A stretch of 64,000 bases of DNA from an archaeon GW2011_AR15 (GTDB lineage Archaea > Nanobdellota > Nanobdellia > Woesearchaeales > GW2011-AR15). Made by a program: the position numbers and the translations under genes. Under the pieces are notes generated by a model, which saw nothing but the letters and a program-made list of their open reading frames with translations, was not told the origin of the DNA and made no database searches. Location: positions 896,001-960,000 of the forward strand of contig CP010425.1 in assembly GCA_000830295.1 (NCBI GenBank). Direction: 5' to 3'. This document shows positions 48,030 to 64,000 of the stretch, in pieces (the stretch's first letter is position 1; every line of letters starts with the position of its first letter).

Positions 48030-48172
48030 TTTTTTACCTTGTCCTTACTACCAACCAGTTAAGAGGCGGACGTAGTAATAAATAATTAATCCACCTAGTG
48101 TAGGTATACCTATTCTACTTATTTTAAAAAAATAAGACTGAAAAATTAGACAGCGCTGAATGAAAAAAAAGA

Positions 48173-48195
48173 TAGTGGGGAAAGGATCTAGAACC
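48173..48195 (-). repeat. degenerate direct repeat of the tRNA-iMet 3' end
   Basis: TAGTGGGGAAAGGATCTAGAACC versus tRNA TAGCGGGGAAAGGATTTGAACC (48268-48289). Confidence 0.65.
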
Positions 48196-48267
48196 AACTG
48201 AGAAATCAGTTGACACTTTGTGAGTTTCCTTTCAGTCAAGCTCACATAGAACTCTTTTATAAAAAAG

Positions 48268-48342
48268 TAGCGGGGAAAGGATTTGAACCTCCGACCTACG
48301 GGTTATGAGCCCGTCGGGCACTCCTGGCTGCCCTACCCCGCT
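48268..48342 (-). tRNA. tRNA-Met(CAT), initiator
   Basis: AGCGGGGTAGGGCAGCCAGGAGTGCCCGACGGGCTCATAACCCGTAGGTCGGAGGTTCAAATCCTTTCCCCGCTA; A1-U72, three G-C pairs in the anticodon stem, no encoded CCA. Confidence 0.95.
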
Positions 48343-48491
48343 GCATAGGGTTCCAGAAAATTATATCTTTTATAAATGTTGTTCCATTTCTGAGCTTTTT
48401 AATCTCTTATCCTGGAAATAGATTTATATATTAAACCAGGTTTCTGGACATTATTTTATCATTAAAAAGTAGTTACTAGAAGGCGATTGGT

Positions 48492-49733
48492 GTGCTGAAC
48501 CCCTATACTGTAAAAGAACTCTGTAATCTGCCAGCAAATAGGCTGTATGACTTAACTCTGGACCCTAAAGCCAAAATTGCAGCTAATACTCCAAGACCAA
48601 AGGCAGACAGGAATTTCAGCCCAGGCGCACAGGCATATAAATTTACAAACGAAAATCTTGACAGCATAGTAGACGGGCTTAAGAAAGCCGAGATAGATCT
48701 GTCAGGAAAAACAGTTTTCAGTATTGCATGCTCGGGCGACCCTCTTATCCTCTTTTCAGCTCTTGGAGCTGACTACAATATAGCTTTTGATTCTTCATAC
48801 AAAGCTGTGGCCTGGACAGAGTTTAAATGCGCAATGGTTAGAACCCTCACGCATCATGATGCCCTTGCTTCTCTTGGGCAGGTTAACCTATTGAGGAGTT
48901 CAAAGTATTATCTAAAACTCAATAAGCCTAATCTAGGCATAGATGCAAAATCGCAGGGGTTTAAAACCCAATCCGGGATGCCATACATGTCCATAGAAAA
49001 AAACAGTACAGTTGCTGACGCCATCATAAGGCAGATGTCAAAATGGGCCGGTAGCATATTTGAGGAGCTCTTCAGAAACTATACTTTTGACAATATACCG
49101 CAAGGTGCACCTCCCCATTCTTTAAGGCAGGATTATATCTCCTGCATAATCCCGGAAGATGGAACATCACAGTCCTCAGATTTCTTCAGGGGAGGAAGTC
49201 ATGGGTATACAGGTGCATTTCCGGAACTGAATGGCTATCTAAAAGATAGAAGGCTGTATGAATCTGCCAGCAGGAATTTAGAGATGGAAGAGACGGCATT
49301 TATTCCAGGAGATATTTTTAAGATGATAGAAATGCTTCTTGGAGTAAAGCAATATAGGATATTTTCAAAAGATTTTTTTAAGAGGGATAAAAGAAAAGCC
49401 ACGAGATTTCTTGAGCAGTCACTAGATGCAGAGCAGAAAGCAGATCTATTCTATCTTTCAAATGTCCCAGATCACCTGAAAGATTCCAAAGGCAACAAAA
49501 AGTACCATTCTAAAGTATTCGGTCCATTTGCTGATATGGTATGCGGGCTCCTAAATCCCGGAGGGGCACTCATAATAAACCATGAGTGGAACGCTGAAAA
49601 GGAATTTAGGGATAATCCAGACCCGGATTCCAGCTTAGGCGAGTATTTAAAACAAGAGCATGGGCTTGAGAAGACAATATGTAGAGACGGCTCGGGATAT
49701 GGTTGCGAAGTGATATATACAAAGAGAAGGTGA
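48492..49733 (+). CDS. DUF3419/BtaA-like SAM-dependent transferase-fold protein
   Basis: YKFTNEN, KTVFSIACSGDP, AFD, DLFYLSNVPD, LNPGG. Confidence 0.55.
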   Translation: MLNPYTVKELCNLPANRLYDLTLDPKAKIAANTPRPKADRNFSPGAQAYKFTNENLDSIVDGLKKAEIDLSGKTVFSIACSGDPLILFSALGADYNIAFDSSYKAVAWTEFKCAMVRTLTHHDALASLGQVNLLRSSKYYLKLNKPNLGIDAKSQGFKTQSGMPYMSIEKNSTVADAIIRQMSKWAGSIFEELFRNYTFDNIPQGAPPHSLRQDYISCIIPEDGTSQSSDFFRGGSHGYTGAFPELNGYLKDRRLYESASRNLEMEETAFIPGDIFKMIEMLLGVKQYRIFSKDFFKRDKRKATRFLEQSLDAEQKADLFYLSNVPDHLKDSKGNKKYHSKVFGPFADMVCGLLNPGGALIINHEWNAEKEFRDNPDPDSSLGEYLKQEHGLEKTICRDGSGYGCEVIYTKRR

Positions 49734-50818
49734 GAAAAATTTCAGAAGTCTATTTTATCTGTACAGGAAACACGTGCAGGAGCCCAATGGCTGAGGTCTA
49801 TGCTCAGCACACTTCAAAAGCATATGGCCTTGACAGGATCATTAATTTCCACTCAAGGGCACTAAAGCCCAGAGAGCTGCTCCTTGAAAAATTTTTCGGA
49901 GAGCTCGTCGCCTCTCCTATGAGCGAAACGGCATCTCCCGGGACTATAGAAGTAATATCCAAAAGACTGCCGGAGCAAAATGATGCTATAAGCTCCCATA
50001 GATCAATGGCACTGAAGAGGGAAGAAATTAAATCCGCTGATATAGTCTTAACTATGACAGCATCCCACAAAGATAATATACTGATTTATGCTCAGGATAT
50101 ACCGGATCTCGAAAAGAAGGTATTCACTCTAAAAGAGTATGCAAACTCAGTCAGCCATTACAGCGATTCAGCTGACATTGATGTTGTTGACCCCTATGGC
50201 GCAGGAGCAATACCAAACCTTACCAGTCTACTTTTAAGCAAGACAGACATAGAGATGCAAAAACTGGGAAGAAACTACCTGAAAAAAATAAAAGGTTATT
50301 TTGAAAGCAAGGCAAAAAAAATAAGAGAGAAAAAAGGCAATAGGGGTATTAGTTTCAGAACTAATGAATGGATAGCTAGGAGGGGATTCTCTTTCTGCGT
50401 ATACTCTGAAACCTTGGAAAATGTAACGCTTTCGCAAATCAGGAACCTTCGGTCTAGGCCGAGCCACTTTGTAAAGAGCCCTTTTGAGATATCCATAGAG
50501 ATTGACTCAGAAAGAAAAAAGGCGTATACTGAAACCTTTGATGAAATAAAAGAGGCAATTGACCATATATCCCCATCAGCCGCTCCTTATTCAAGCATAG
50601 GGTTGCCTTATATTATGAGGCCGAGAGCAAATGAAGATAGGCAGATTGTTAAAATGTGGTTAGCAGTAATAGAAAACCTGCTGCCTCAATATACTTCAGA
50701 TGCTGCAGAAGATAATGAAGTGAATAACATGCTGCTTAAGCTGACCAATTCTTCTTTAGACAATCTGCTGGGAAGGGGAAGGACGGAAATTCTGAAAAAG
50801 ATAAAGGGAGAAGAATGA
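49730..50818 (+). CDS. LMW-PTP family phosphatase (YwlE-like P-loop) with internal insertion
   Basis: FICTGNTCRSPMAE, HRS, ADIVLTMT..H, VFTLKEY, DVVDPYG; GTGA overlap with the upstream stop. Confidence 0.85.
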   Translation: MRKISEVYFICTGNTCRSPMAEVYAQHTSKAYGLDRIINFHSRALKPRELLLEKFFGELVASPMSETASPGTIEVISKRLPEQNDAISSHRSMALKREEIKSADIVLTMTASHKDNILIYAQDIPDLEKKVFTLKEYANSVSHYSDSADIDVVDPYGAGAIPNLTSLLLSKTDIEMQKLGRNYLKKIKGYFESKAKKIREKKGNRGISFRTNEWIARRGFSFCVYSETLENVTLSQIRNLRSRPSHFVKSPFEISIEIDSERKKAYTETFDEIKEAIDHISPSAAPYSSIGLPYIMRPRANEDRQIVKMWLAVIENLLPQYTSDAAEDNEVNNMLLKLTNSSLDNLLGRGRTEILKKIKGEE

Positions 50819-52377
50819 AAGATCTAGAAAAACTGCTTGAAAATGTACTTTTTGTCTGCACAGGAAACACATGCAGAAGCCCAATGGCCGAGGCTATATA
50901 CAGGCAACTTGCTGGGGAATTAAGACCAGATCTAGATACAGAAGTCAAATCAGCAGGCCTTAGTATAGATCCTTATTCACTTGACAGATTTTCAGATATA
51001 CCTTTTTTTGACGGTGAACATATGAGAGAAAGCATAAAGAGACTTGGTCTCGGTATTGGGATATCCGAAGATACGCTAAGCGTCCTTGAAGAATGGAGAG
51101 GGGGAATTTCAGAGGGATACATAAACAGGAAACCAAGGCAGCTTGTAAAAAAAGACCTTAAGGATGCAAGCCTCGTTCTCGTTATGGAAAGGGCACATTA
51201 TACCACCCTAATGAGAGATTTTGGCAAAAAAATAACGGACCTTGAAAAAAAACTTTACCTAATGACAGAATTTGCCAATCTTCCAGGAGAGGTCACAGAT
51301 CCTCTTCGCCTCCCTAAGCAATATATTGTCTGCAGAGAGACTATGATTGAGGCCGTAACCAATATACTTACTGGAAAGATAGCAAAACATAAAGAAATTA
51401 TTGAACACAGGAAGACAGCAAACCTAATAGAAGGGAGATATTCCCGCCAAAGGGAAATATCAGACAGAATGGATATAATGTGGGAGCTTGCAAAGACCCT
51501 GATAGCAGAATATGGCAGCCTAAACGAATCAGGAAAAGGCAGTGCTCTAAATATAATTGATACAATATATTCGTCCAGGCAAATTATACCTCCACTTCCA
51601 GATGAAGCAAATAACATCACATTAAAAAAATGGAGAAAAGATTATGAGAAAATTGAAAGGCATAATGAAGCAATGTGGGAGAGATTTATTTATTCGGCTT
51701 ATTTAAAAGGTGAAACAGGGCATCCAAAGTCAGGAAATAAAAGGATACTTGACATAGTCCAATCGGCACTAGAAAGGAGAAGCTACCGGGAGAACACAGA
51801 AGAGATATTCACAATATACGCGGGCTCAAAATACCTAAGAAAACACAGCAGGGAAATAAAACGCAGCGATTCTAGGAAAGAAGAGATATATGAAGTAACC
51901 AAAGCCTCAGATATGCTGTTTAGGGGCAACAACATAAGAGAAAAAACCGGGCATGATAATATCTCCCTGGATTATGCTTTTCAGTTCTTTGATTTAGTTC
52001 AAAGAAAGCTAAGGGAAGACTCCTTTAGTATTAGTCTTTACAAGATAGCAGGAAGCCTCAATCTAATGGGAATAAACCGTAGAAGTCTGGATAATGTATA
52101 CCATATCTTGGAAGAACAGGGAGAAGCGTCACTGGAAGGACTGATGAGGCTGGCAGAAAAAAAGCTGAAATCATTCAACCCCCCTACCGATGCGATATTG
52201 GCTCTTCTTCAGGAGGGTTATCAGCTGGACGTGAAAAATGAAAATGATATGGTCTCAATCCGTGATGCTTTGCGCAATAGAATGAACAGAGTCGGCATGT
52301 TAGATAAAATTAAGGATGCTTCAGAATATGCCTCCAGAGAATATTTTCTTGATCATAGGAAAACAAATCTAGGTTAA
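50815..52377 (+). CDS. LMW-PTP family phosphatase (YwlE-like P-loop) with long C-terminal extension
   Basis: VLFVCTGNTCRSPMAE, KSAG, ASLVLVMERAH, EVTDP; ATGA overlap with the upstream stop. Confidence 0.85.
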   Translation: MKDLEKLLENVLFVCTGNTCRSPMAEAIYRQLAGELRPDLDTEVKSAGLSIDPYSLDRFSDIPFFDGEHMRESIKRLGLGIGISEDTLSVLEEWRGGISEGYINRKPRQLVKKDLKDASLVLVMERAHYTTLMRDFGKKITDLEKKLYLMTEFANLPGEVTDPLRLPKQYIVCRETMIEAVTNILTGKIAKHKEIIEHRKTANLIEGRYSRQREISDRMDIMWELAKTLIAEYGSLNESGKGSALNIIDTIYSSRQIIPPLPDEANNITLKKWRKDYEKIERHNEAMWERFIYSAYLKGETGHPKSGNKRILDIVQSALERRSYRENTEEIFTIYAGSKYLRKHSREIKRSDSRKEEIYEVTKASDMLFRGNNIREKTGHDNISLDYAFQFFDLVQRKLREDSFSISLYKIAGSLNLMGINRRSLDNVYHILEEQGEASLEGLMRLAEKKLKSFNPPTDAILALLQEGYQLDVKNENDMVSIRDALRNRMNRVGMLDKIKDASEYASREYFLDHRKTNLG

Positions 52378-52378
52378 A

Positions 52379-53674
52379 ATGGCATTGACACCAAAACTTG
52401 AAGAGCTGCTCACTGACACCAGATTAATGAACGAGGAGCACGACTTTCTTGTTGAATACATACAACCAAGACTGCATCATTTCTTTTTGAAAGACCAGGA
52501 ACAAATCTTGACAAGATACCGGGCCATTGTAGAGAATAGGCAGAAATTCGAGAGATCATTCCCTGAAGGAGAATACAGCAGGTCAGTTATAGGTCTAGAA
52601 GGGATAGTGCAACTTCCGGAAAGTCCTTATGACATGCTGGGATTATTTTCTAGAGCCATAATAACAATGAATAATAAAACACTACATGAAATGTACAGGT
52701 ATTTTGACAAAAACTCTCTTGATACTATAAGAAGCAACATAAACGGCAGGCGCCTATATTCGAAAATAAGGGCATATCTTAATGGGGATTTGAATAAAGC
52801 CTCAGCAAGAGAACTCATAGCTATATTCAGAGATGGGCTAAACCCTAACAACCGCAAGCTGGAGAGAATCCTGGATTATATCAAGAAAGCCATAGAATCT
52901 GATAAATTTGAAAATGCGTCGTATATTGTAGCAAGAGTAAATACCCCCAGGATAGATTATACCCAGGACAAAGGCAAAACAGGAAGCTGTGCTTTTTTGG
53001 GCATTCTTGAGGGCGGCCATAATCCCCACTATCAGAGGGATCTTAACTCAAGGTACCATGCATCTTTACTCTATATGGCTGATCCTGAAATTGGGATACT
53101 GGCATTGCAGGTTCAGAGAAAAAACAGGCTGGAGCATCCTTCAGGACTGCTTATAATGGCGGATCTGATTGGGAAGAAAACAAAAAACAGCAAAAAAGAG
53201 AGATATCTTCTTGTTGATTCTGTAGAGGCCTACAGACATAGCTATGACACCAGATTTGCAGGAGACATGCCTCTAAGGGAGATGGATAAAAATACATGGA
53301 CCAAAACGCTGAAAGAAGGGCTTCTGAATCTGGCTGCCAGAACAGAGCACGATTATATTTTTTATAATCCAAGATTTTATAATCCGGGAGGAAAAGAATT
53401 TACAAAAAAATTTATAAGCTCTATAAAGGAAAATGGTTACCAAGTTGAGACAAGCACTGTCACTTTCTGGAAAAAACTTGGGGATTCGGCCATACCAAAG
53501 GGATTCAACTATGAGTTTGGATATTACCTTGATGCATTTATGCCATCAGGTAACCCGAGATATTTCAGTGCTGCGGACCCTGAGCACGCAACCCAAGGAA
53601 TTAAGAATATACAGGGAAGAAAGGCAAGAGGGTATGTTATAAGCAGGCCAAAAGGCGGATGGCTTTGTCCTTAA
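52379..53674 (+). CDS. hypothetical protein (possible GNAT-like C-terminal half)
   Basis: 431-aa ORF 1 nt after the previous stop; GKTGSCAFLG..YMADP..LLVDSVEA pattern. Confidence 0.65.
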   Translation: MALTPKLEELLTDTRLMNEEHDFLVEYIQPRLHHFFLKDQEQILTRYRAIVENRQKFERSFPEGEYSRSVIGLEGIVQLPESPYDMLGLFSRAIITMNNKTLHEMYRYFDKNSLDTIRSNINGRRLYSKIRAYLNGDLNKASARELIAIFRDGLNPNNRKLERILDYIKKAIESDKFENASYIVARVNTPRIDYTQDKGKTGSCAFLGILEGGHNPHYQRDLNSRYHASLLYMADPEIGILALQVQRKNRLEHPSGLLIMADLIGKKTKNSKKERYLLVDSVEAYRHSYDTRFAGDMPLREMDKNTWTKTLKEGLLNLAARTEHDYIFYNPRFYNPGGKEFTKKFISSIKENGYQVETSTVTFWKKLGDSAIPKGFNYEFGYYLDAFMPSGNPRYFSAADPEHATQGIKNIQGRKARGYVISRPKGGWLCP

Positions 53675-54252
53675 TGCAAGAAGAGATAATAATAAGAAAG
53701 GCAGAGTCAGGAGATTTAGACGGCATAATGAGGGTTGAGGAAGAGTCTTTCCTCCCTGGCGATAGGTATCCAAGGAGGTATATATCTGATGAGATTAAAA
53801 ACCAAGATAGCCAAAGACAGTATTTTGTTGCTGAATATAATAGAAGGATTGTAGGTTACTCGGCTGCCGGCATCCAGGAAAGCGGGACAGCGCTCATGGG
53901 CCCTGTTTCTGATGTTGAAAAAGAACTTGGGATCCATCTGGAAGCAACCAGAGTGGGTGTTCTTATAAGTTTGGGGGTAATAAAGGAAGAAAGAAGGAAA
54001 AATATAGGGGGTATGCTAACGCAGGCCAGGCTGAGATGGATTGAGAATAATCTGGAGGACGATAAAAAGTATGTGTTTGCCCATGCATGGCCGAATGGCG
54101 GATTCAACTACCTAGCAAAAAGCTTCGGTTTCAGGAGAGTAATGAACTGGGATAACAGAGAAGCCTATTCAGATGATAGCCATGCAATATTGTATTTCCT
54201 TGACCTAAACCTGCAAGGTAAAAACGATCTTCAGACTGTTATTATTTTATAG
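53659..54252 (+). CDS. GNAT N-acetyltransferase (RimI-like)
   Basis: IIRKAESGDLDGIMRVEEESF, YFVAEY..IVGY, SLGVIKEERRKNIGGML (motif A), FGF. Confidence 0.8.
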   Translation: MALSLMQEEIIIRKAESGDLDGIMRVEEESFLPGDRYPRRYISDEIKNQDSQRQYFVAEYNRRIVGYSAAGIQESGTALMGPVSDVEKELGIHLEATRVGVLISLGVIKEERRKNIGGMLTQARLRWIENNLEDDKKYVFAHAWPNGGFNYLAKSFGFRRVMNWDNREAYSDDSHAILYFLDLNLQGKNDLQTVIIL

Positions 54253-54309
54253 TAGTTAAGACTTAGAAAACTTTATATATTTCCGGCAGATACCGAGGAA
54301 AGAGGGGAT

Positions 54310-56784
54310 ATGGCTAAAAGTGTCAATGGATTAGAGGCGATACTTAAGAATACGGCCTCCTCTGATTTGAGAAGAGCCATATCCAAAAGTAAGTTCCCAG
54401 AAAGCACTTCCTTACTCTTTCTTGACGGAAAAAGCATCGGGACAAGCGCCGACCCTGGTAAAATTAAAGCAGGCACTTACAGGATTGAGTTATGGGATGA
54501 AGAACTGGATATAAAATACCCTTTTTCTATCCCTGATATTGGGCTGGATAGTAAAACTCCCGAGGAGCTTACCGAATATGGCATTAGTGCAAATGAAGCA
54601 GCACCCAGACTAGTCAGGCTTGGAGCCTCACTTTACTCTCTTCTTGAGAAAAAACCACTATTTCAAACTACTGCTGAACTGGAGGATAAATCCAGGAATT
54701 ACAAAGAAGAAATCATGAAGAAAGGAGGCACTTACGAGCCGTTTCATATTGCAAGAGAAATAACCCGCGACTATATACCCCAGGATCTTAATTTAAGAGA
54801 TATTCTTGAAGCAATAAGGGAACTATATAAGGGGAGGGATAGGATGGAGACTACAGTATCATATATTCCTTTCTCAATGGATAGCATAAGAGGGAAGGTG
54901 GCTGTTGCTTCTTTCACAGGTGAAAAAGACGGGCTTCATGGGATGATAAGATTTAATGGAGCTGAGCTAAAATTTGGAGATATCGGCCTTGCGAGATATA
55001 AAAAAAAGATAGGTCATTTGTTTGACACAGTCACTAAGCTGGAAAGAGATCTTATGCAGGCTGAAACCAGTTTAGATGACAAGGGATTTATTTATACAAT
55101 CTCCGCTGGAGCAGAAGGGAACTATATCTTTAGAATAAGCAAAAGACCATATACAGAGCCGGAGATTAGGTTAGAAAGACTCATGGGGGCATATAATTCC
55201 AAAAAAATAAGTATTTCTGATTTAATGGGTAAATTAACGCAGGATCTTCTAGTACATTATGAAGAATTTGAAACTAAAGGCATTAAAGGTGTGAAGACAG
55301 GTGCAACTCCGTCAGGAAGCGGCCTTGCAATAGGCACACTAATACTGGATTCTGCTGAAAAAATTAATGAACTGGCTAAGAATCAGGAGTTTATCCTTGT
55401 ATCAAGAAGGGATGATTCGGATATTGGCAAAGCACTTTATGATAAGAGATGCGTAGGCTATATCAACCCTACAGCAAGCAAATCCCACCATTACGTTATT
55501 CTGGCGGGGAATCTTAACATCCCGGTATTGCACAGTAGCCCATCATTAAAAATTGATAATGATGAGATGCAAGTCTCAGAAGGCGAAGAAGAATATTTTA
55601 ATGATTTTGATACTGTCAGCGTTGATTTTGGTAACTCCCTGATATATCCTAAAAAACTCAAGGTTATAAAAAAAGAAAATAAGGGTTTGGAGAAACTGTT
55701 TGAGATTATAAAGGAGAACCAAAGTATTTCCGTATATGTAAACGCAGATTCTCCGAAAAAGATAAGGGAAGCACTTGAGAATGGGGCCAGAGGGATTGGT
55801 CTCTGCAGAACTGAAAGAATGTTTTATCATCCGCCCTATATGCAGATGCTGCAGAGGATTATACTAAGTGCATATAACTGCAATAATGAGAAGCATAAGA
55901 TAGAAAAGCATAGCATGAAAAAAGACCTCTCTCTCTTAGGAAAATACCTCTCAGATGCCTTCCTGGAGATGTACTCTGCAGCAGATGGGCTTCCTGTTGT
56001 TATAAGACTCCTGGATCCACCGCTCCATGAATTTATAAAAAGAGATATCCAGGAGTATGGCTGGAATGAATTCTCGTATAACCTCGGGGTATGTGCCAAG
56101 TGCGACAAGCCGGATTTTAAAACTTTGGAGGAGGCTAATCCAGCACTAGGGCTCAGAGGGGTAAGGGTTGGTATAGAAAGGCCCGAGATATACAAAGCCC
56201 AGATTGGCGCTATAATGACTGCAGCCGCAAGAGCAAAAAAAGAAGGCAAAAAAGTTATTCCCCAGATTTTAATACCTTTTGTTAATTCCACTGAAGAGAT
56301 TAATATTATAAGGGGCTATATTGAAGAAATGAGGCAGACAGCGGAATCTAGCTACGGAATTCATATAGATTATAAGATAAGGGCAATGATTGAGACTCCA
56401 GCAGCATTATCTAGGATGCCTCAGATAGCTGAAGCAGTAGACGGGATAAGCTTTGGAACAAATGACCTTACCCAGGCATGGATGGGACTTGACAGGGAAA
56501 CAGCAGACAGCATAGGCAGCATATACTCTTCAAGGGGAATCAGCATAGGAGAGCCGTTTTCAAGACTCGATGAGGGGCTTATCCGGGAGATGGAGCTAAG
56601 AATAGATGAGACAAGAGAAAAAATTAAAAAATCAGGCAGGGAATTTACAATATCAGTCTGCGGTGAGCAGGCAGCGCATGAGATAGGAAGATTGCACAAT
56701 ATCGGCATAGATTATGTAAGTATTTCCCCGGGGAAATTAGATTTATCAATTATAGAAAGTGTAAAGTTGAGGTATCATGGCTAA
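54310..56784 (+). CDS. PPDK-derived PEP-utilising protein (intact PEP barrel and His swivel, degenerate ATP-grasp)
   Basis: VNADSP, GIGLCRTERMF, IRLLDPPLHEF, EANPALGLRGVR, MIETP, SFGTNDLTQ, VCGEQ, SKSHHYVILA. Confidence 0.85.
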   Translation: MAKSVNGLEAILKNTASSDLRRAISKSKFPESTSLLFLDGKSIGTSADPGKIKAGTYRIELWDEELDIKYPFSIPDIGLDSKTPEELTEYGISANEAAPRLVRLGASLYSLLEKKPLFQTTAELEDKSRNYKEEIMKKGGTYEPFHIAREITRDYIPQDLNLRDILEAIRELYKGRDRMETTVSYIPFSMDSIRGKVAVASFTGEKDGLHGMIRFNGAELKFGDIGLARYKKKIGHLFDTVTKLERDLMQAETSLDDKGFIYTISAGAEGNYIFRISKRPYTEPEIRLERLMGAYNSKKISISDLMGKLTQDLLVHYEEFETKGIKGVKTGATPSGSGLAIGTLILDSAEKINELAKNQEFILVSRRDDSDIGKALYDKRCVGYINPTASKSHHYVILAGNLNIPVLHSSPSLKIDNDEMQVSEGEEEYFNDFDTVSVDFGNSLIYPKKLKVIKKENKGLEKLFEIIKENQSISVYVNADSPKKIREALENGARGIGLCRTERMFYHPPYMQMLQRIILSAYNCNNEKHKIEKHSMKKDLSLLGKYLSDAFLEMYSAADGLPVVIRLLDPPLHEFIKRDIQEYGWNEFSYNLGVCAKCDKPDFKTLEEANPALGLRGVRVGIERPEIYKAQIGAIMTAAARAKKEGKKVIPQILIPFVNSTEEINIIRGYIEEMRQTAESSYGIHIDYKIRAMIETPAALSRMPQIAEAVDGISFGTNDLTQAWMGLDRETADSIGSIYSSRGISIGEPFSRLDEGLIREMELRIDETREKIKKSGREFTISVCGEQAAHEIGRLHNIGIDYVSISPGKLDLSIIESVKLRYHG

Positions 56785-58138
56785 AAAAAAACCAGGCAGG
56801 CTTTCTATAGAAGATAAGGTGGCGCTATTCAAAAATCTGAACAATTATAACGAGATTGCCCTGGATAGTATGGAGATGCCAATAGAGATTTTAGAGCGCG
56901 GATATCTTTTTTATTCTCCCGGGAGCATATCTGCTAGTGTTACCCGCAGCATACAGGGTATTGGGGGGATGATAGATACATATGAGAGAGTTTCGCGGAA
57001 AAAACTCGAGAAGGAAGAGAAAAGGCACATCAGCAAAGTCCAGAGCATAGCAGCAGAAATTGCTGCAGAGCTTGACCAAGCCGTGTTTTCTGAAAATCAG
57101 GAAAAAATCAACCAAGAATATAAAAGGTATATAACAGGAGTCAGGGATATCAGGGAGAAGTTTTCCGATTCCGGAGCAGAGTCTATAATTGAAACCAAAA
57201 CAATCCATGAGTTAATCCGTGTTCTCCATCAGCTTGGAATAAAAAATGCTTTTAAGCTGCCAAAAGCACCTACTTCAAAAAAGCGTTCCATGGGAGATTT
57301 TCACCATACCGCTGCAGCCCTTTATATCATAGACATAGGCGGGGCAATAAGAAAAGGCGCCCAAGATAAGTATTATAATCTTAGCATAGAAGATGTGGTA
57401 AATCCGCAGCTTGCAAAAATAGCCTCTATATATTCATCAATAGAGAAAAGGAATGAAGGAAGGGAAGACGGCAACCTTTTTGTTTCAGGAAAAGAACTTC
57501 TTGGTAGCATATCTCTTGGGGCTCATGCGTTTGAAATAGTAACCTCATTTGAATCCGGCCAGCAAATGATACTAATCAGATATAAAGACACTTCACCAGG
57601 CTCCTACAAATATGCAGGGCACAGAATAAAAGCATTCAGTCAGGCACTTTTAGATCTTGGATTCAAGAGCAGCACCGACCGGCAATTCCTGAAAGCGCAT
57701 TACTACGGGGAAAACCTTGAAAGCTCAATTGAAAAGTTCGGAAAACTCTGGACAATAGCTATGTCAACTAAGGACCTTGATGTAGATGAGTCACCAATAG
57801 GTAAGGCATATCACTTTGTAGTTCAGTCCTTTAAAGAAGGGATACTGAATGTTGAGGCTCTGGCAAAGTTTTATGTTAATGTAAGAAAAAAGATGAACAA
57901 CGCCAATAGTGATAAGAAGATGAATATTCTAATGGATGAGCTTAAAAAATCAGCATCTAAGTATAGTGTAACAGAAAATGAATTCGCATTTGCAATAAGA
58001 TATACTGCTATGCTGCTTGAGCGTGAAATAAAAAAAGAACTAGGAAAAAAAGCTTTGAATGAAAAAATGGCAGGAAGATTTGCAGCACTATATGCAGAAA
58101 TAGATAAACGAGGCCAGGATAACTATCTGAAGCCATAG
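56777..58138 (+). CDS. hypothetical protein resembling the C-terminal domain of deltaproteobacterial PEP-utilising (PpsA-like) proteins
   Basis: TIHELIRVLHQ, LYIIDIGG, IEDV, SLGAH, ALLDLGF, STKDLDV; overlaps the upstream gene by 8 nt. Confidence 0.6.
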   Translation: MAKKKPGRLSIEDKVALFKNLNNYNEIALDSMEMPIEILERGYLFYSPGSISASVTRSIQGIGGMIDTYERVSRKKLEKEEKRHISKVQSIAAEIAAELDQAVFSENQEKINQEYKRYITGVRDIREKFSDSGAESIIETKTIHELIRVLHQLGIKNAFKLPKAPTSKKRSMGDFHHTAAALYIIDIGGAIRKGAQDKYYNLSIEDVVNPQLAKIASIYSSIEKRNEGREDGNLFVSGKELLGSISLGAHAFEIVTSFESGQQMILIRYKDTSPGSYKYAGHRIKAFSQALLDLGFKSSTDRQFLKAHYYGENLESSIEKFGKLWTIAMSTKDLDVDESPIGKAYHFVVQSFKEGILNVEALAKFYVNVRKKMNNANSDKKMNILMDELKKSASKYSVTENEFAFAIRYTAMLLEREIKKELGKKALNEKMAGRFAALYAEIDKRGQDNYLKP

Positions 58139-58220
58139 CTTCTTTATGGTATAAATATCAATACTCTTCTCATGTTTTTCTACCGCCAAACTTATAAATA
58201 GCACGGGATTTCAGCTACAT

Positions 58221-58568: not shown

Positions 58569-58636
58569 TTATATTACTTATTAGTAGTAACAAAACAGAA
58601 AGCTTTATATATAGGCAGCTGCTCACATCTATAAAG

Positions 58637-59035
58637 GTGAGCCTAATGTTGGAAACAATTAGAAAACTTGACTCAAAGATAAGACACGCTTTTATACTTG
58701 CAAAAAGGGATATTTATGACCTGAGGGCAGCTGTAAAGATGCAGCAGGAAGTCATAAAGAAGCTAAGCGACAGCCAGAAAACACTGCTGGCCAGAATAGA
58801 GAAGCTGGAAAAAGCCAGGACAGTTGTTAAAACAATCAAAGTTGCGCAGCCAAAAGTTATTAGGACAAAGGTAATAAGGGCAAAAAAGACATATGTTGGA
58901 GCTAAGACAACACAGAAAGTCCACAGCATGGACTGTCCGTTCGGAAAGAACATAAAGCCAAAGAACAAGGTAATCTTTAGGACAAAGACAAAGGCTTTCA
59001 ATGAAGGTTTCAGCGCATGCGACTGCCTGCGTTAA
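58637..59035 (+). CDS. coiled-coil protein with C-terminal Ada-like metal-binding domain
   Basis: YVGAK..KVHSMDCP..NIKPKN..F..A..GFSACDC. Confidence 0.65.
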   Translation: MSLMLETIRKLDSKIRHAFILAKRDIYDLRAAVKMQQEVIKKLSDSQKTLLARIEKLEKARTVVKTIKVAQPKVIRTKVIRAKKTYVGAKTTQKVHSMDCPFGKNIKPKNKVIFRTKTKAFNEGFSACDCLR

Positions 59036-63455: not shown

Positions 63456-64000
63456 TTATGTAAGCTGAGCCTCAATCCTCAGCAGCTGATTGTACTTCGC
63501 AACTCTTTCTCCCCTGCATGGCGCCCCTGCTTTTATCTGGCCGCAGCCAAGGCCGACAGCAAGGTCCGCTATAAAGGTATCCTCAGTCTCCCCGCTCCTG
63601 TGGCTTACCATAACCTTCCAGTTGTTTCCAAAAGCGAGCTTGGCTGCCTGTATTGCTTCAGTCACTGTGCCGATCTGGTTGATTTTCAGGAGAAGGGCAT
63701 TGCAGGCATTTTTTTCCAGAGCCAGCTTTATCCTTTCGATATTTGTGACAAGTAGGTCATCTCCGATAACAGTGACTCCTGCTTTTTTCATGAAATAGCT
63801 CCAGGATTCAAAATCATCTTCTGCAAATGGGTCCTCTATAGAGAGTATGGGGTATTTGACAAGAAGCTTCATATAATAGGCCGCAAGCTCTTTTCCGTCA
63901 AGCTCTTTCTGTCCTGCCTTTGCTTTGCTTCCAAGCACATATTTTCCTCCCCTGTAAAACTCAGATGCAGCGCAGTCCAGCGCAATTTTTATTTTTCCCC
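63456..64000 (-). CDS. eno: enolase, C-terminal part (runs off the window edge)
   Basis: [55 protein letters not shown]. Confidence 0.95.

Follow-up and report, generated by a model that had tools for sequence, protein, structure and literature searches.

What becomes of a dikinase when one of its substrate sites can no longer be recognised, and can the remaining half still do chemistry? This question is raised by a gene in the window analysed here, a stretch of 64,000 nucleotides (nt) from the archaeon GW2011_AR15 (GenBank assembly GCA_000830295.1, contig CP010425.1, positions 896,001 to 960,000 of the forward strand), whose genome is a single contig of 1,157,790 bases rated 96.8% complete. 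All coordinates below without a contig or locus label are those of the window. At 54310..56784 on the + strand, stop codon included, the ORF list of the window contains an uninterrupted ATG-to-TAA open reading frame (ORF) of 824 amino acids (aa). We identify its product as a protein derived from pyruvate phosphate dikinase (PPDK), based on the ORF, Pfam, NCBIfam, and PDB matches, and codon usage. A preliminary description of this DNA had proposed that the protein lost the dikinase cycle, kept the phosphoenolpyruvate (PEP) half of the reaction, and converged on the chemistry of Enzyme I of the phosphotransferase system (PTS). Our preferred reading, to which we give a probability of roughly 0.48, is that the protein is a fast-evolved PPDK derivative that would act as a PEP-dependent histidine phosphotransferase, found so far in this genome only.

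The ORF is real and coding-like in its frame. It runs for 824 open codons at 40% G+C, and in frame 1 the three parts of the protein have codon-usage log-likelihoods of 0.24, 0.31, and 0.32 bits per codon, against -0.68 to -1.92 bits per codon across the same parts in frames 2 and 3; as a reference, the long ORFs of the genome average 0.40 bits per codon with a standard deviation of 0.13. Groundwater metagenomes are the listed sequencing context containing the DNA of the gene. Next to none of the sampled words were present in three groundwater metatranscriptome runs, and no RNA run is listed with the gene. The exact 824-aa sequence occurs on 19 contigs and a 412-aa truncated form (P0121) on one, a 3,111-base metagenome contig in which a 53-nt deletion (55520-55572) shifts the frame. 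We considered this truncated allele as a sign of decay and discounted it. Neighbouring genes have comparable truncated or indel variants, and core genes of the window have them as well (in the housekeeping gene SufB, 5 of 8 cluster members are below full length), so the allele says little; it may be an assembly artefact.

The best-kept part of the protein is by far its C-terminal PEP/pyruvate-binding TIM barrel, residues 456-824 (55675..56781, + strand), assigned from its Pfam match, its invariant residues, and its motifs. PEP-utilizers_C (PF02896) is the sole solid Pfam domain, scoring 195.9 bits over residues 456-809 against a cut-off of 22.8. Using a MAFFT alignment of the query with 51 diverse PPDKs (set A1), we counted the PPDK-invariant columns in each part of the protein. 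The barrel is 35.6% identical to PPDKs, which are mutually 55-58% identical over the same columns, and it keeps 49 of 61 invariant columns, including R500, T501, and E502 of CRTE, R566 and D569 of IRLLD, E695 of MIE, N718 and D719 of GTND, R729, and C784 and E786 of CGE. The preliminary description had listed these five motifs as intact, and all were located in the protein (CRTE starts at residue 499, IRLLD at 565, MIE at 693, GTND at 716, and CGE at 784, with SHH of the preceding domain at 392). From the literature on Clostridium symbiosum PPDK, we take R500, R566, C784, and the other kept barrel residues to be those of PEP and Mg binding and enolpyruvate protonation. Keeping 49 of 61 invariants at only 36% identity is, for a sequence comparison, strong site-specific retention, and judged in this way the PEP/pyruvate site is intact.

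The top NCBIfam match is TIGR01828, the PPDK equivalog, at 290.1 bits (cut-off 843.45), aligning residues 317-812 to model positions 375-855. The PEP synthase models TIGR01418 and PRK06464 score 89.7 and 91.7 bits (cut-offs 739.75 and 598), and the Enzyme I models TIGR01417 and PRK11177 score 107.1 and 93 bits (cut-offs 341.7 and 824), the latter pair over the barrel region only. In the PDB, PPDKs match best (phmmer E 4e-63 to 2e-49), in alignments that begin at residues 326-328, and this start corresponds to chain residue 390 of C. symbiosum PPDK, the first of its central His domain. Over residues 326-817 the PPDK matches have E values of 4e-63 to 1e-54. Enzyme I barrels in the PDB match residues 599-743 with E values of 1e-21 to 1e-13. 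The protein shares with PPDK (EC 2.7.9.1; C. symbiosum 1KBL, Trypanosoma brucei 2X0S, maize 1VBG) the same three-part length plan, a homologous PEP/pyruvate barrel, all PEP-site motifs, and a probably homologous central His domain, and Foldseek matches a model of it, built with the help of a PPDK alignment, to full-length PPDKs with an E value of 1e-46. It differs in having no PPDK_N signal and no ATP or inorganic phosphate (Pi) motifs, in keeping 3 of 15 swivel invariants, and in scoring far below the TIGR01828 cut-off.

Comparison with PTS Enzyme I limits how far the proposed convergence can be taken. The chemistry would be shared, namely PEP-dependent autophosphorylation of a swivel His beside a homologous barrel with no nucleotide site. 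However, the query is much closer to PPDK in sequence and fold, and Pfam does not report the N-terminal HPr-binding domain of Enzyme I in it. HPr itself (PF00381) has no match at E<=1 in the host genome, whereas the same search was positive in 8 of 14 control genomes. By these comparisons the 824-aa protein is not an Enzyme I, and what stands of the convergence is an analogy of chemistry.

Between the barrel and the N-terminal region lies a diverged central phospho-His domain, the swivel, at residues 328-455 (55291..55674, + strand), assigned by hhalign and by the count of invariants. Against the 51 PPDKs, hhalign gives it a probability of 87% (E 3.8e-6, 116 columns), although its identity to them is 16.7%, it keeps G338, G342, and H394 alone among the 15 invariants, and Pfam does not detect PF00391 in the protein at E<=0.01. 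The degree of this divergence had not been noted before. On these alignments the swivel domain is probably homologous to the PPDK central domain. In phmmer, MAFFT, and hhalign alignments, His394 falls on the catalytic His, His393 on the Ser, and Ser392 on the regulatory Thr (the codons of His393 and His394 are at 55486..55491, + strand). The swivel His had been reported as kept, and it does stand in the catalytic register, but that report was off by one position, since the catalytic residue is His394, the second His of KSHH. Likewise, the regulatory Thr had been reported as lost; it is absent, but in the aligners' register it is replaced by Ser392, and the earlier register would need a gap further on. 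The loop as a whole reads ASKSHH where PPDKs have GG(M/R)TSH, such that 4 of the 6 positions are conservative in addition to the His (small residues for Gly-Gly, Lys for Arg or Met, Ser for Thr). The PEP synthase of the host genome has GGRTCH at this loop. In PPDKs controlled by the PPDK regulatory protein, the regulatory Thr lies two residues before the catalytic His, where the query has Ser392, and this regulator (DUF299, PF03618) has no match at E<=1 in the host genome.

A different possibility is that the barrel is functional alone, either as a module that binds PEP/pyruvate or is of lyase type, or as a scaffold for dimerisation, with the His unused and residues 1-455 serving another, unrelated role. 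Besides the superior preservation of the barrel, this idea draws on a weak similarity to the HpcH/HpaI aldolase family (21.2 bits, below the Pfam cut-off of 25) and on Foldseek, which also reaches pyruvate kinase and citrate-lyase-like barrels. We consider it very improbable. The kept residues R500, R566, and C784 are those of phosphoryl binding and enolpyruvate protonation, a chemistry that needs a phosphoryl acceptor, and the His is in register within a conservatively substituted loop.

The N-terminal region, residues 1-327 (54310..55290, + strand), shows no significant similarity to any family, and we label it as possibly a degenerate ATP-grasp domain on the basis of sub-threshold leads. 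In a forced alignment it is 18.8% identical to PPDKs and keeps 9 of 27 invariants. The absence of the ATP and Pi motifs GGKG, SVRSG, GEDVV, DIEF, and LQTR, as claimed previously, was borne out: a motif scan found GGK, GKG, VRS, RSG, GED, DVV, IEF, QTR, and TSH nowhere in the 824-aa protein. No Pfam family was found for the region at E<=10, PF01326 included, and a six-frame genome search with PF01326 found no hidden or frameshifted ATP-grasp at the locus at E<=1.

The by-eye alignment of this region to the PPDK nucleotide domain, on which the preliminary description had relied, was by sequence statistics no better than chance. Comparison by hhalign of residues 1-237 and 1-330 with the 51 PPDKs aligned without the query (set A2) gave a probability of 0.2% with E 0.29-0.37, and the sole weak hhalign match is in a register other than the one drawn by eye. 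A profile hidden Markov model (HMM) of the PPDK N-domain scored the region at -2.4 bits, a value equalled or exceeded by 111 of 500 shuffled sequences (214 of the 500 were unscored), and semi-global pairwise alignment to PPDK gave z = 0.47. The alignment to PPDKs that had been suggested as a check thus holds for barrel and swivel, from residues 326-328 onwards, but not for the N-terminal region. An intermediate sequence gave no link either: a second PPDK from a genome of the same family (G011) does not connect the region to PPDK_N, and its BLASTP similarity to the query begins at residue 382.

Some leads nevertheless point to an ATP-grasp origin, those from language-model features and fold being sub-threshold. 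The ESM Atlas features of residues 1-327 lie nearest to PPDK_N clusters (0.89, 0.88, and 0.87, below the tool's bar of 0.9), and the nearest fold to the Atlas model is an ATP-grasp of RimK type with TM scores of 0.34 and 0.39, below 0.5. Similarity also fades gradually towards the N-terminus, with BLASTP alignments reaching residue 237 (P0015) or 284 (P0037) and TIGR01828 matching from 317. In a single-sequence AlphaFold model of residues 1-330, four helices (94-173) come first, then strands and a long helix, and after these more strands and helices; the mean predicted local distance difference test score (pLDDT) is 39, too low for a fold search. The PPDK nucleotide domain has this same order of helices and strands. 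The PPDK-like shape that the region takes in a second AlphaFold model, built with the PPDK alignment, was set aside and is not counted as evidence, given a pLDDT of 26-65 and the bias that the alignment introduces.

On the leads, the element order, and the fading alignments, residues 1-327 possibly descend from ATP-grasp. A rival account of the origin, orthogonal to function, holds that an unrelated sequence replaced the ATP-grasp domain by recombination, such that the protein would be a new domain fused to the His and PEP domains of PPDK, much as Enzyme I is built. No sequence test gave significant similarity to PPDK_N, and the rest of the genomic island in which the gene lies consists of orphans and orphan extensions, both as replacement would have it. 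But the similarity fades with no sharp junction, the Atlas leads point to PPDK_N and ATP-grasp, and the predicted element order resembles the PPDK nucleotide domain. We consider replacement rather unlikely and favour divergence in place from ATP-grasp at about two to one.

A related possibility is that the protein is still a nucleotide-dependent dikinase, either through a diverged ATP-grasp binding ATP or another donor, or through a PPDK_N protein acting in trans. Its attractions are the Atlas features and RimK-type fold just described, an N-terminal length that is roughly right (327 versus about 389 residues), and the presence of a stand-alone PPDK_N protein elsewhere in the genome (136 bits); two-component kinases are reported to exist in the superfamily (PMC12167813). 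Several results make this improbable. The Atlas scores and TM values are below their bars, the N-domain HMM score is at shuffle level, and the motifs with mutation-tested ATP and Pi residues are absent (PDB titles name K22A, R337A, and T453A mutants). The PPDK_N gene is unlinked, about 740 kb from the PPDK-like gene, and its own motifs are degenerate. This stand-alone protein has 539 aa (L004 877-2496, minus strand; G000 at about C1:206.6-208.3 kb), with a long acidic low-complexity stretch after the degenerate motifs and with no His domain and no barrel.

The most economical reading of the three parts is that the nucleotide half-reaction would have been lost and PEP-dependent autophosphorylation retained, because the PEP site and an in-register His are kept, the ATP and Pi motifs are gone, and PPDK_N is undetectable. 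This part of the earlier proposal is the best reading available, although residues 1-327 only possibly descend from an ATP-grasp. In such an enzyme PEP + E-His <-> pyruvate + E-His~P, the third of the PPDK partial reactions, would persist, whereas the ATP and Pi partial reactions would no longer run, because the protein has neither motifs of the nucleotide or Pi site nor a detectable signature of an ATP-grasp. More tentatively, the swivel may carry the phosphoryl group to the 327 re-modelled residues at the N-terminus; the acceptor there would be non-nucleotide, a small molecule or a protein. Alternatively, the phospho-state could report the PEP/pyruvate ratio to partner proteins, for which the candidates are a translationally coupled 453-aa orphan and two fusion proteins of the same island containing an LMW-PTP domain (a protein tyrosine phosphatase of low molecular weight). 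Freedom from docking on a working nucleotide domain would explain the divergence of the swivel. The cell has enolase and, elsewhere in the genome, a canonical 798-aa PEP synthase with all motifs, so the PPDK-like gene is not needed for the housekeeping reaction.

A number of observations weigh against a PEP-dependent histidine phosphotransferase. An exhaustive phmmer search of 1.84 billion representative proteins with the N-terminal 330 aa matched only the protein itself, in the form of a truncated record, and none of 40 related genomes, 5 of them congeners, has a match to the region. The fold models of the region are of low confidence, with pLDDT 26-65 when the PPDK alignment is used and 39 when it is not. 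The swivel has replaced conserved G451, G452, S455, R462, and G465 (P0040 numbering), and since it has lost most of its conserved residues the case for a His kept by selection is weakened. By counts alone, retention of His394 could be chance, because 3 of 15 invariants is close to the background identity of 16.7%. The best full-length matches are ordinary PPDKs at 29-35% identity, and the terminal branch of the query is 6.29 and 5.12 changes per column in two trees with medians of 0.47 and 0.55, about 9-13 times as long, which is compatible with relaxed constraint. The 453-aa neighbour, a candidate acceptor, is without relatives or a fold lead. The restriction to a single genome may equally mark a short-lived evolutionary experiment.

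Many of these points could also be told as the story of a relic, an ex-PPDK in an accessory island that drifts under relaxed selection and is inactive, its barrel residues being leftovers of an earlier constraint. Such a history would account for the extreme branch length, the 3 of 15 swivel invariants, the unrecognisable N-terminal third, the single genome with an island of orphans absent from congeners, and the one 3,111-base metagenome contig with its 53-nt frameshifting deletion. We nevertheless hold it to be clearly unlikely. The chance of 327 open codons is about 1e-9, at an estimated stop frequency of about 6% in random sequence of 40% G+C, codon usage in frame 1 is coding-like in all three parts, and 49 of 61 barrel invariants are kept at 36% identity. 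The intact form is on 19 contigs and the truncated one on a single contig, with comparable short members known for SufB.

We found a match in 15 of the 40 related genomes, 13 of them PPDK-type at 29-33% identity; the 5 congeners gave no PPDK-type match at E<=1e-10. In trees the query falls outside a clade of 21 canonical PPDKs (SH-aLRT 96), a placement subject to the long-branch caveat, and it joins P0037 with SH-aLRT values of 98 and 85, a grouping flagged as the meeting of long branches that may be long-branch attraction. P0037 is a 678-aa metagenomic PPDK-type protein with about 137 residues before the His domain, no ATP-grasp, and a barrel insert of about 60 residues; it shares RGVR, MIETPAA, CGEQ, and DRE with the query. 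The second PPDK of G011 (846 aa; L037 2630-5170, minus strand, contig C10) has a PPDK_N score of only 47 bits and lacks the strings GGKG, VRSG, GEDVV, IEF, and TSH. A radical-SAM gene overlaps its gene, and a GT2 glycosyltransferase gene is nearby. With the query it shares IERPEIY[KR]AQ, MIETPAA, and CGEQ. P0037, P0043 (864 aa), and the G011 copy are only 31-35% identical to the query and, unlike it, keep a canonical mobile domain (47-85 bits in Pfam). ATP-grasp remnants can be seen in two of them, by eye in P0043 and as the 47-bit PPDK_N match in G011, and none has the N-terminal region of the query.

Reductions of this kind have parallels elsewhere in the superfamily. In Mycobacterium tuberculosis, VadK (Rv1127c) is described as a derivative of PPDK acting as an autophosphorylating regulatory His kinase; it keeps the ATP-grasp and the His, has lost the PEP/pyruvate domain, and is present in several genera (PMC13400623). 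Both VadK and the query have lost one substrate domain and kept the carrier His, but they are mirror images, for the donor is ATP in VadK and would be PEP in the query, and VadK occurs in several genera whereas the query protein comes from one genome. The precedent of VadK shows that a regulatory His kinase can arise from a PPDK left with a single half-reaction. In rifampin phosphotransferase, another member of the superfamily, a dedicated domain binds a non-canonical acceptor, which receives its phosphate from the swivel His (PMC4844700). Its donor domain is an ATP-grasp and it has no PEP-utilizers_C barrel, whereas the PEP barrel would be the donor site in the query. Our literature searches found no published PPDK derivative in which a degenerate N-terminus goes with retained His and PEP domains only, and PMC2405797 mentions neither a dikinase nor PEP synthase nor PEP-utilizing proteins. 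If our reading is right, the protein would be a natural PPDK cut down to the PEP half-reaction, mirroring VadK and rifampin phosphotransferase, in which the ATP half is kept, and it would have come to Enzyme-I-like chemistry independently. The dikinase swivel machine would then be re-usable from either end alone, and the protein would offer a tractable case of how such enzymes gain new acceptors.

The genomic setting supplies candidates for such acceptors. A 9,849-nt insertion at 48343..58191, defined by comparison with the congener G003, lies between tRNA-Met and aIF1A and contains seven genes (48492..58138), tightly packed on the same strand, of which the PPDK-like gene is the sixth. The tRNA-Met (CAT) at 48267..48342 on the - strand forms the left edge of the insertion. 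In G003, 46 nt separate tRNA-Met from aIF1A; in G004 and G005, RNase HII, a tRNA or tRNA fragment, and aIF1A lie within about 3 kb with the island genes absent; and in G002 the island-flanking genes are on different contigs. Because three congeners lack the genes at this place, the cluster is a species-specific insertion beside a tRNA gene. The composition of the island is only mildly atypical, with a G+C of 40.4% versus 42.5% and a tetranucleotide distance that ranks at the 90th percentile. Neither an integrase nor any further mobility gene could be recognised in it, PHROGs matched only LMW-PTP-like and acetyltransferase families, and PADLOC found no defence families among 9 island and flanking proteins. 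No att-type repeat pair flanks the island, the repeats found being short and weak. A stretch of about 30 nt that is similar to the tRNA-Met 3' end does recur (48166-48196 versus 48261-48296), 95 nt apart and on the side away from the island, and may be the scar of an old integration.

In order, the seven genes encode a 413-aa orphan with a sub-threshold DUF3419 match, two LMW-PTP-domain fusions of 371 aa (49703..50818, + strand) and 520 aa (50815..52377, + strand), a 431-aa orphan, a 197-aa GNAT acetyltransferase recognised by Pfam (53659..54252, + strand), the PPDK-like protein, and the 453-aa orphan. The last, taken from the ORF list at 56777..58138 on the + strand, has a start that overlaps the stop of the PPDK-like gene by 8 nt (ATGGCTAA). 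It has no relative but itself, no Pfam family at E<=10, and no usable Atlas fold lead. We also considered it as the carrier of the DIEF/LQTR region that the PPDK-like protein lacks, from a by-eye resemblance (HAFEIV...ILIRYKD), and rejected this, as hhalign against the PPDK alignment gave a probability of 0.2%.

Both fusions, assigned by domain and motif, begin with the LMW-PTP domain, have the P-loop CTGNTCRS and a DP motif, and continue into an orphan extension, in the 520-aa protein a C-terminal part of 350 aa. Their LMW-PTP domains are 26% identical to each other and have Thr at P-loop position 5, whereas the other two of the genome's four LMW-PTP-family genes have CKGNMFRS and CNQNQNRS, with Met and Gln at this position. 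Thr at position 5 is described as the determinant of phosphoarginine specificity in YwlE and DARP (PMC7772506). As a speculation, the island may deal in phospho-proteins with N-P bonds, and these neighbours with a phosphoarginine-type P-loop hint at an N-phosphorylation system in a small-genome archaeon. Taken further, the island could be a self-contained PEP-driven N-phosphorylation module that is not a PTS, an idea we regard as a long shot. His394 would be charged from PEP and the phosphoryl group passed to a protein acceptor, either the 453-aa orphan or His, Arg, or Cys residues on other island proteins. The LMW-PTP fusions would either erase the modification or carry phosphate on Cys, and a second modification would come from the GNAT enzyme. 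Such a module would amount to an archaeal PEP-dependent protein kinase/phosphatase system on a dikinase scaffold.

Upstream of the PPDK-like gene there is a TATA-box-like ctttatatat of putative function at 54271..54280 (+ strand), about 30 nt before the ATG, and a purine-rich gaggggat directly precedes the ATG. A 41-nt element ending in (a/g)ctttatatat occurs at 54240-54280, upstream of the PPDK-like gene, and again at 58572-58612, upstream of an ORF at 58637. The two copies are 76% identical, and the element looks like a shared archaeal promoter (B recognition element and TATA box). At the right end of the window, an enolase match at 63456-64000 (G000 C1:959456-960277, minus strand) has one TAA inside the matched stretch.

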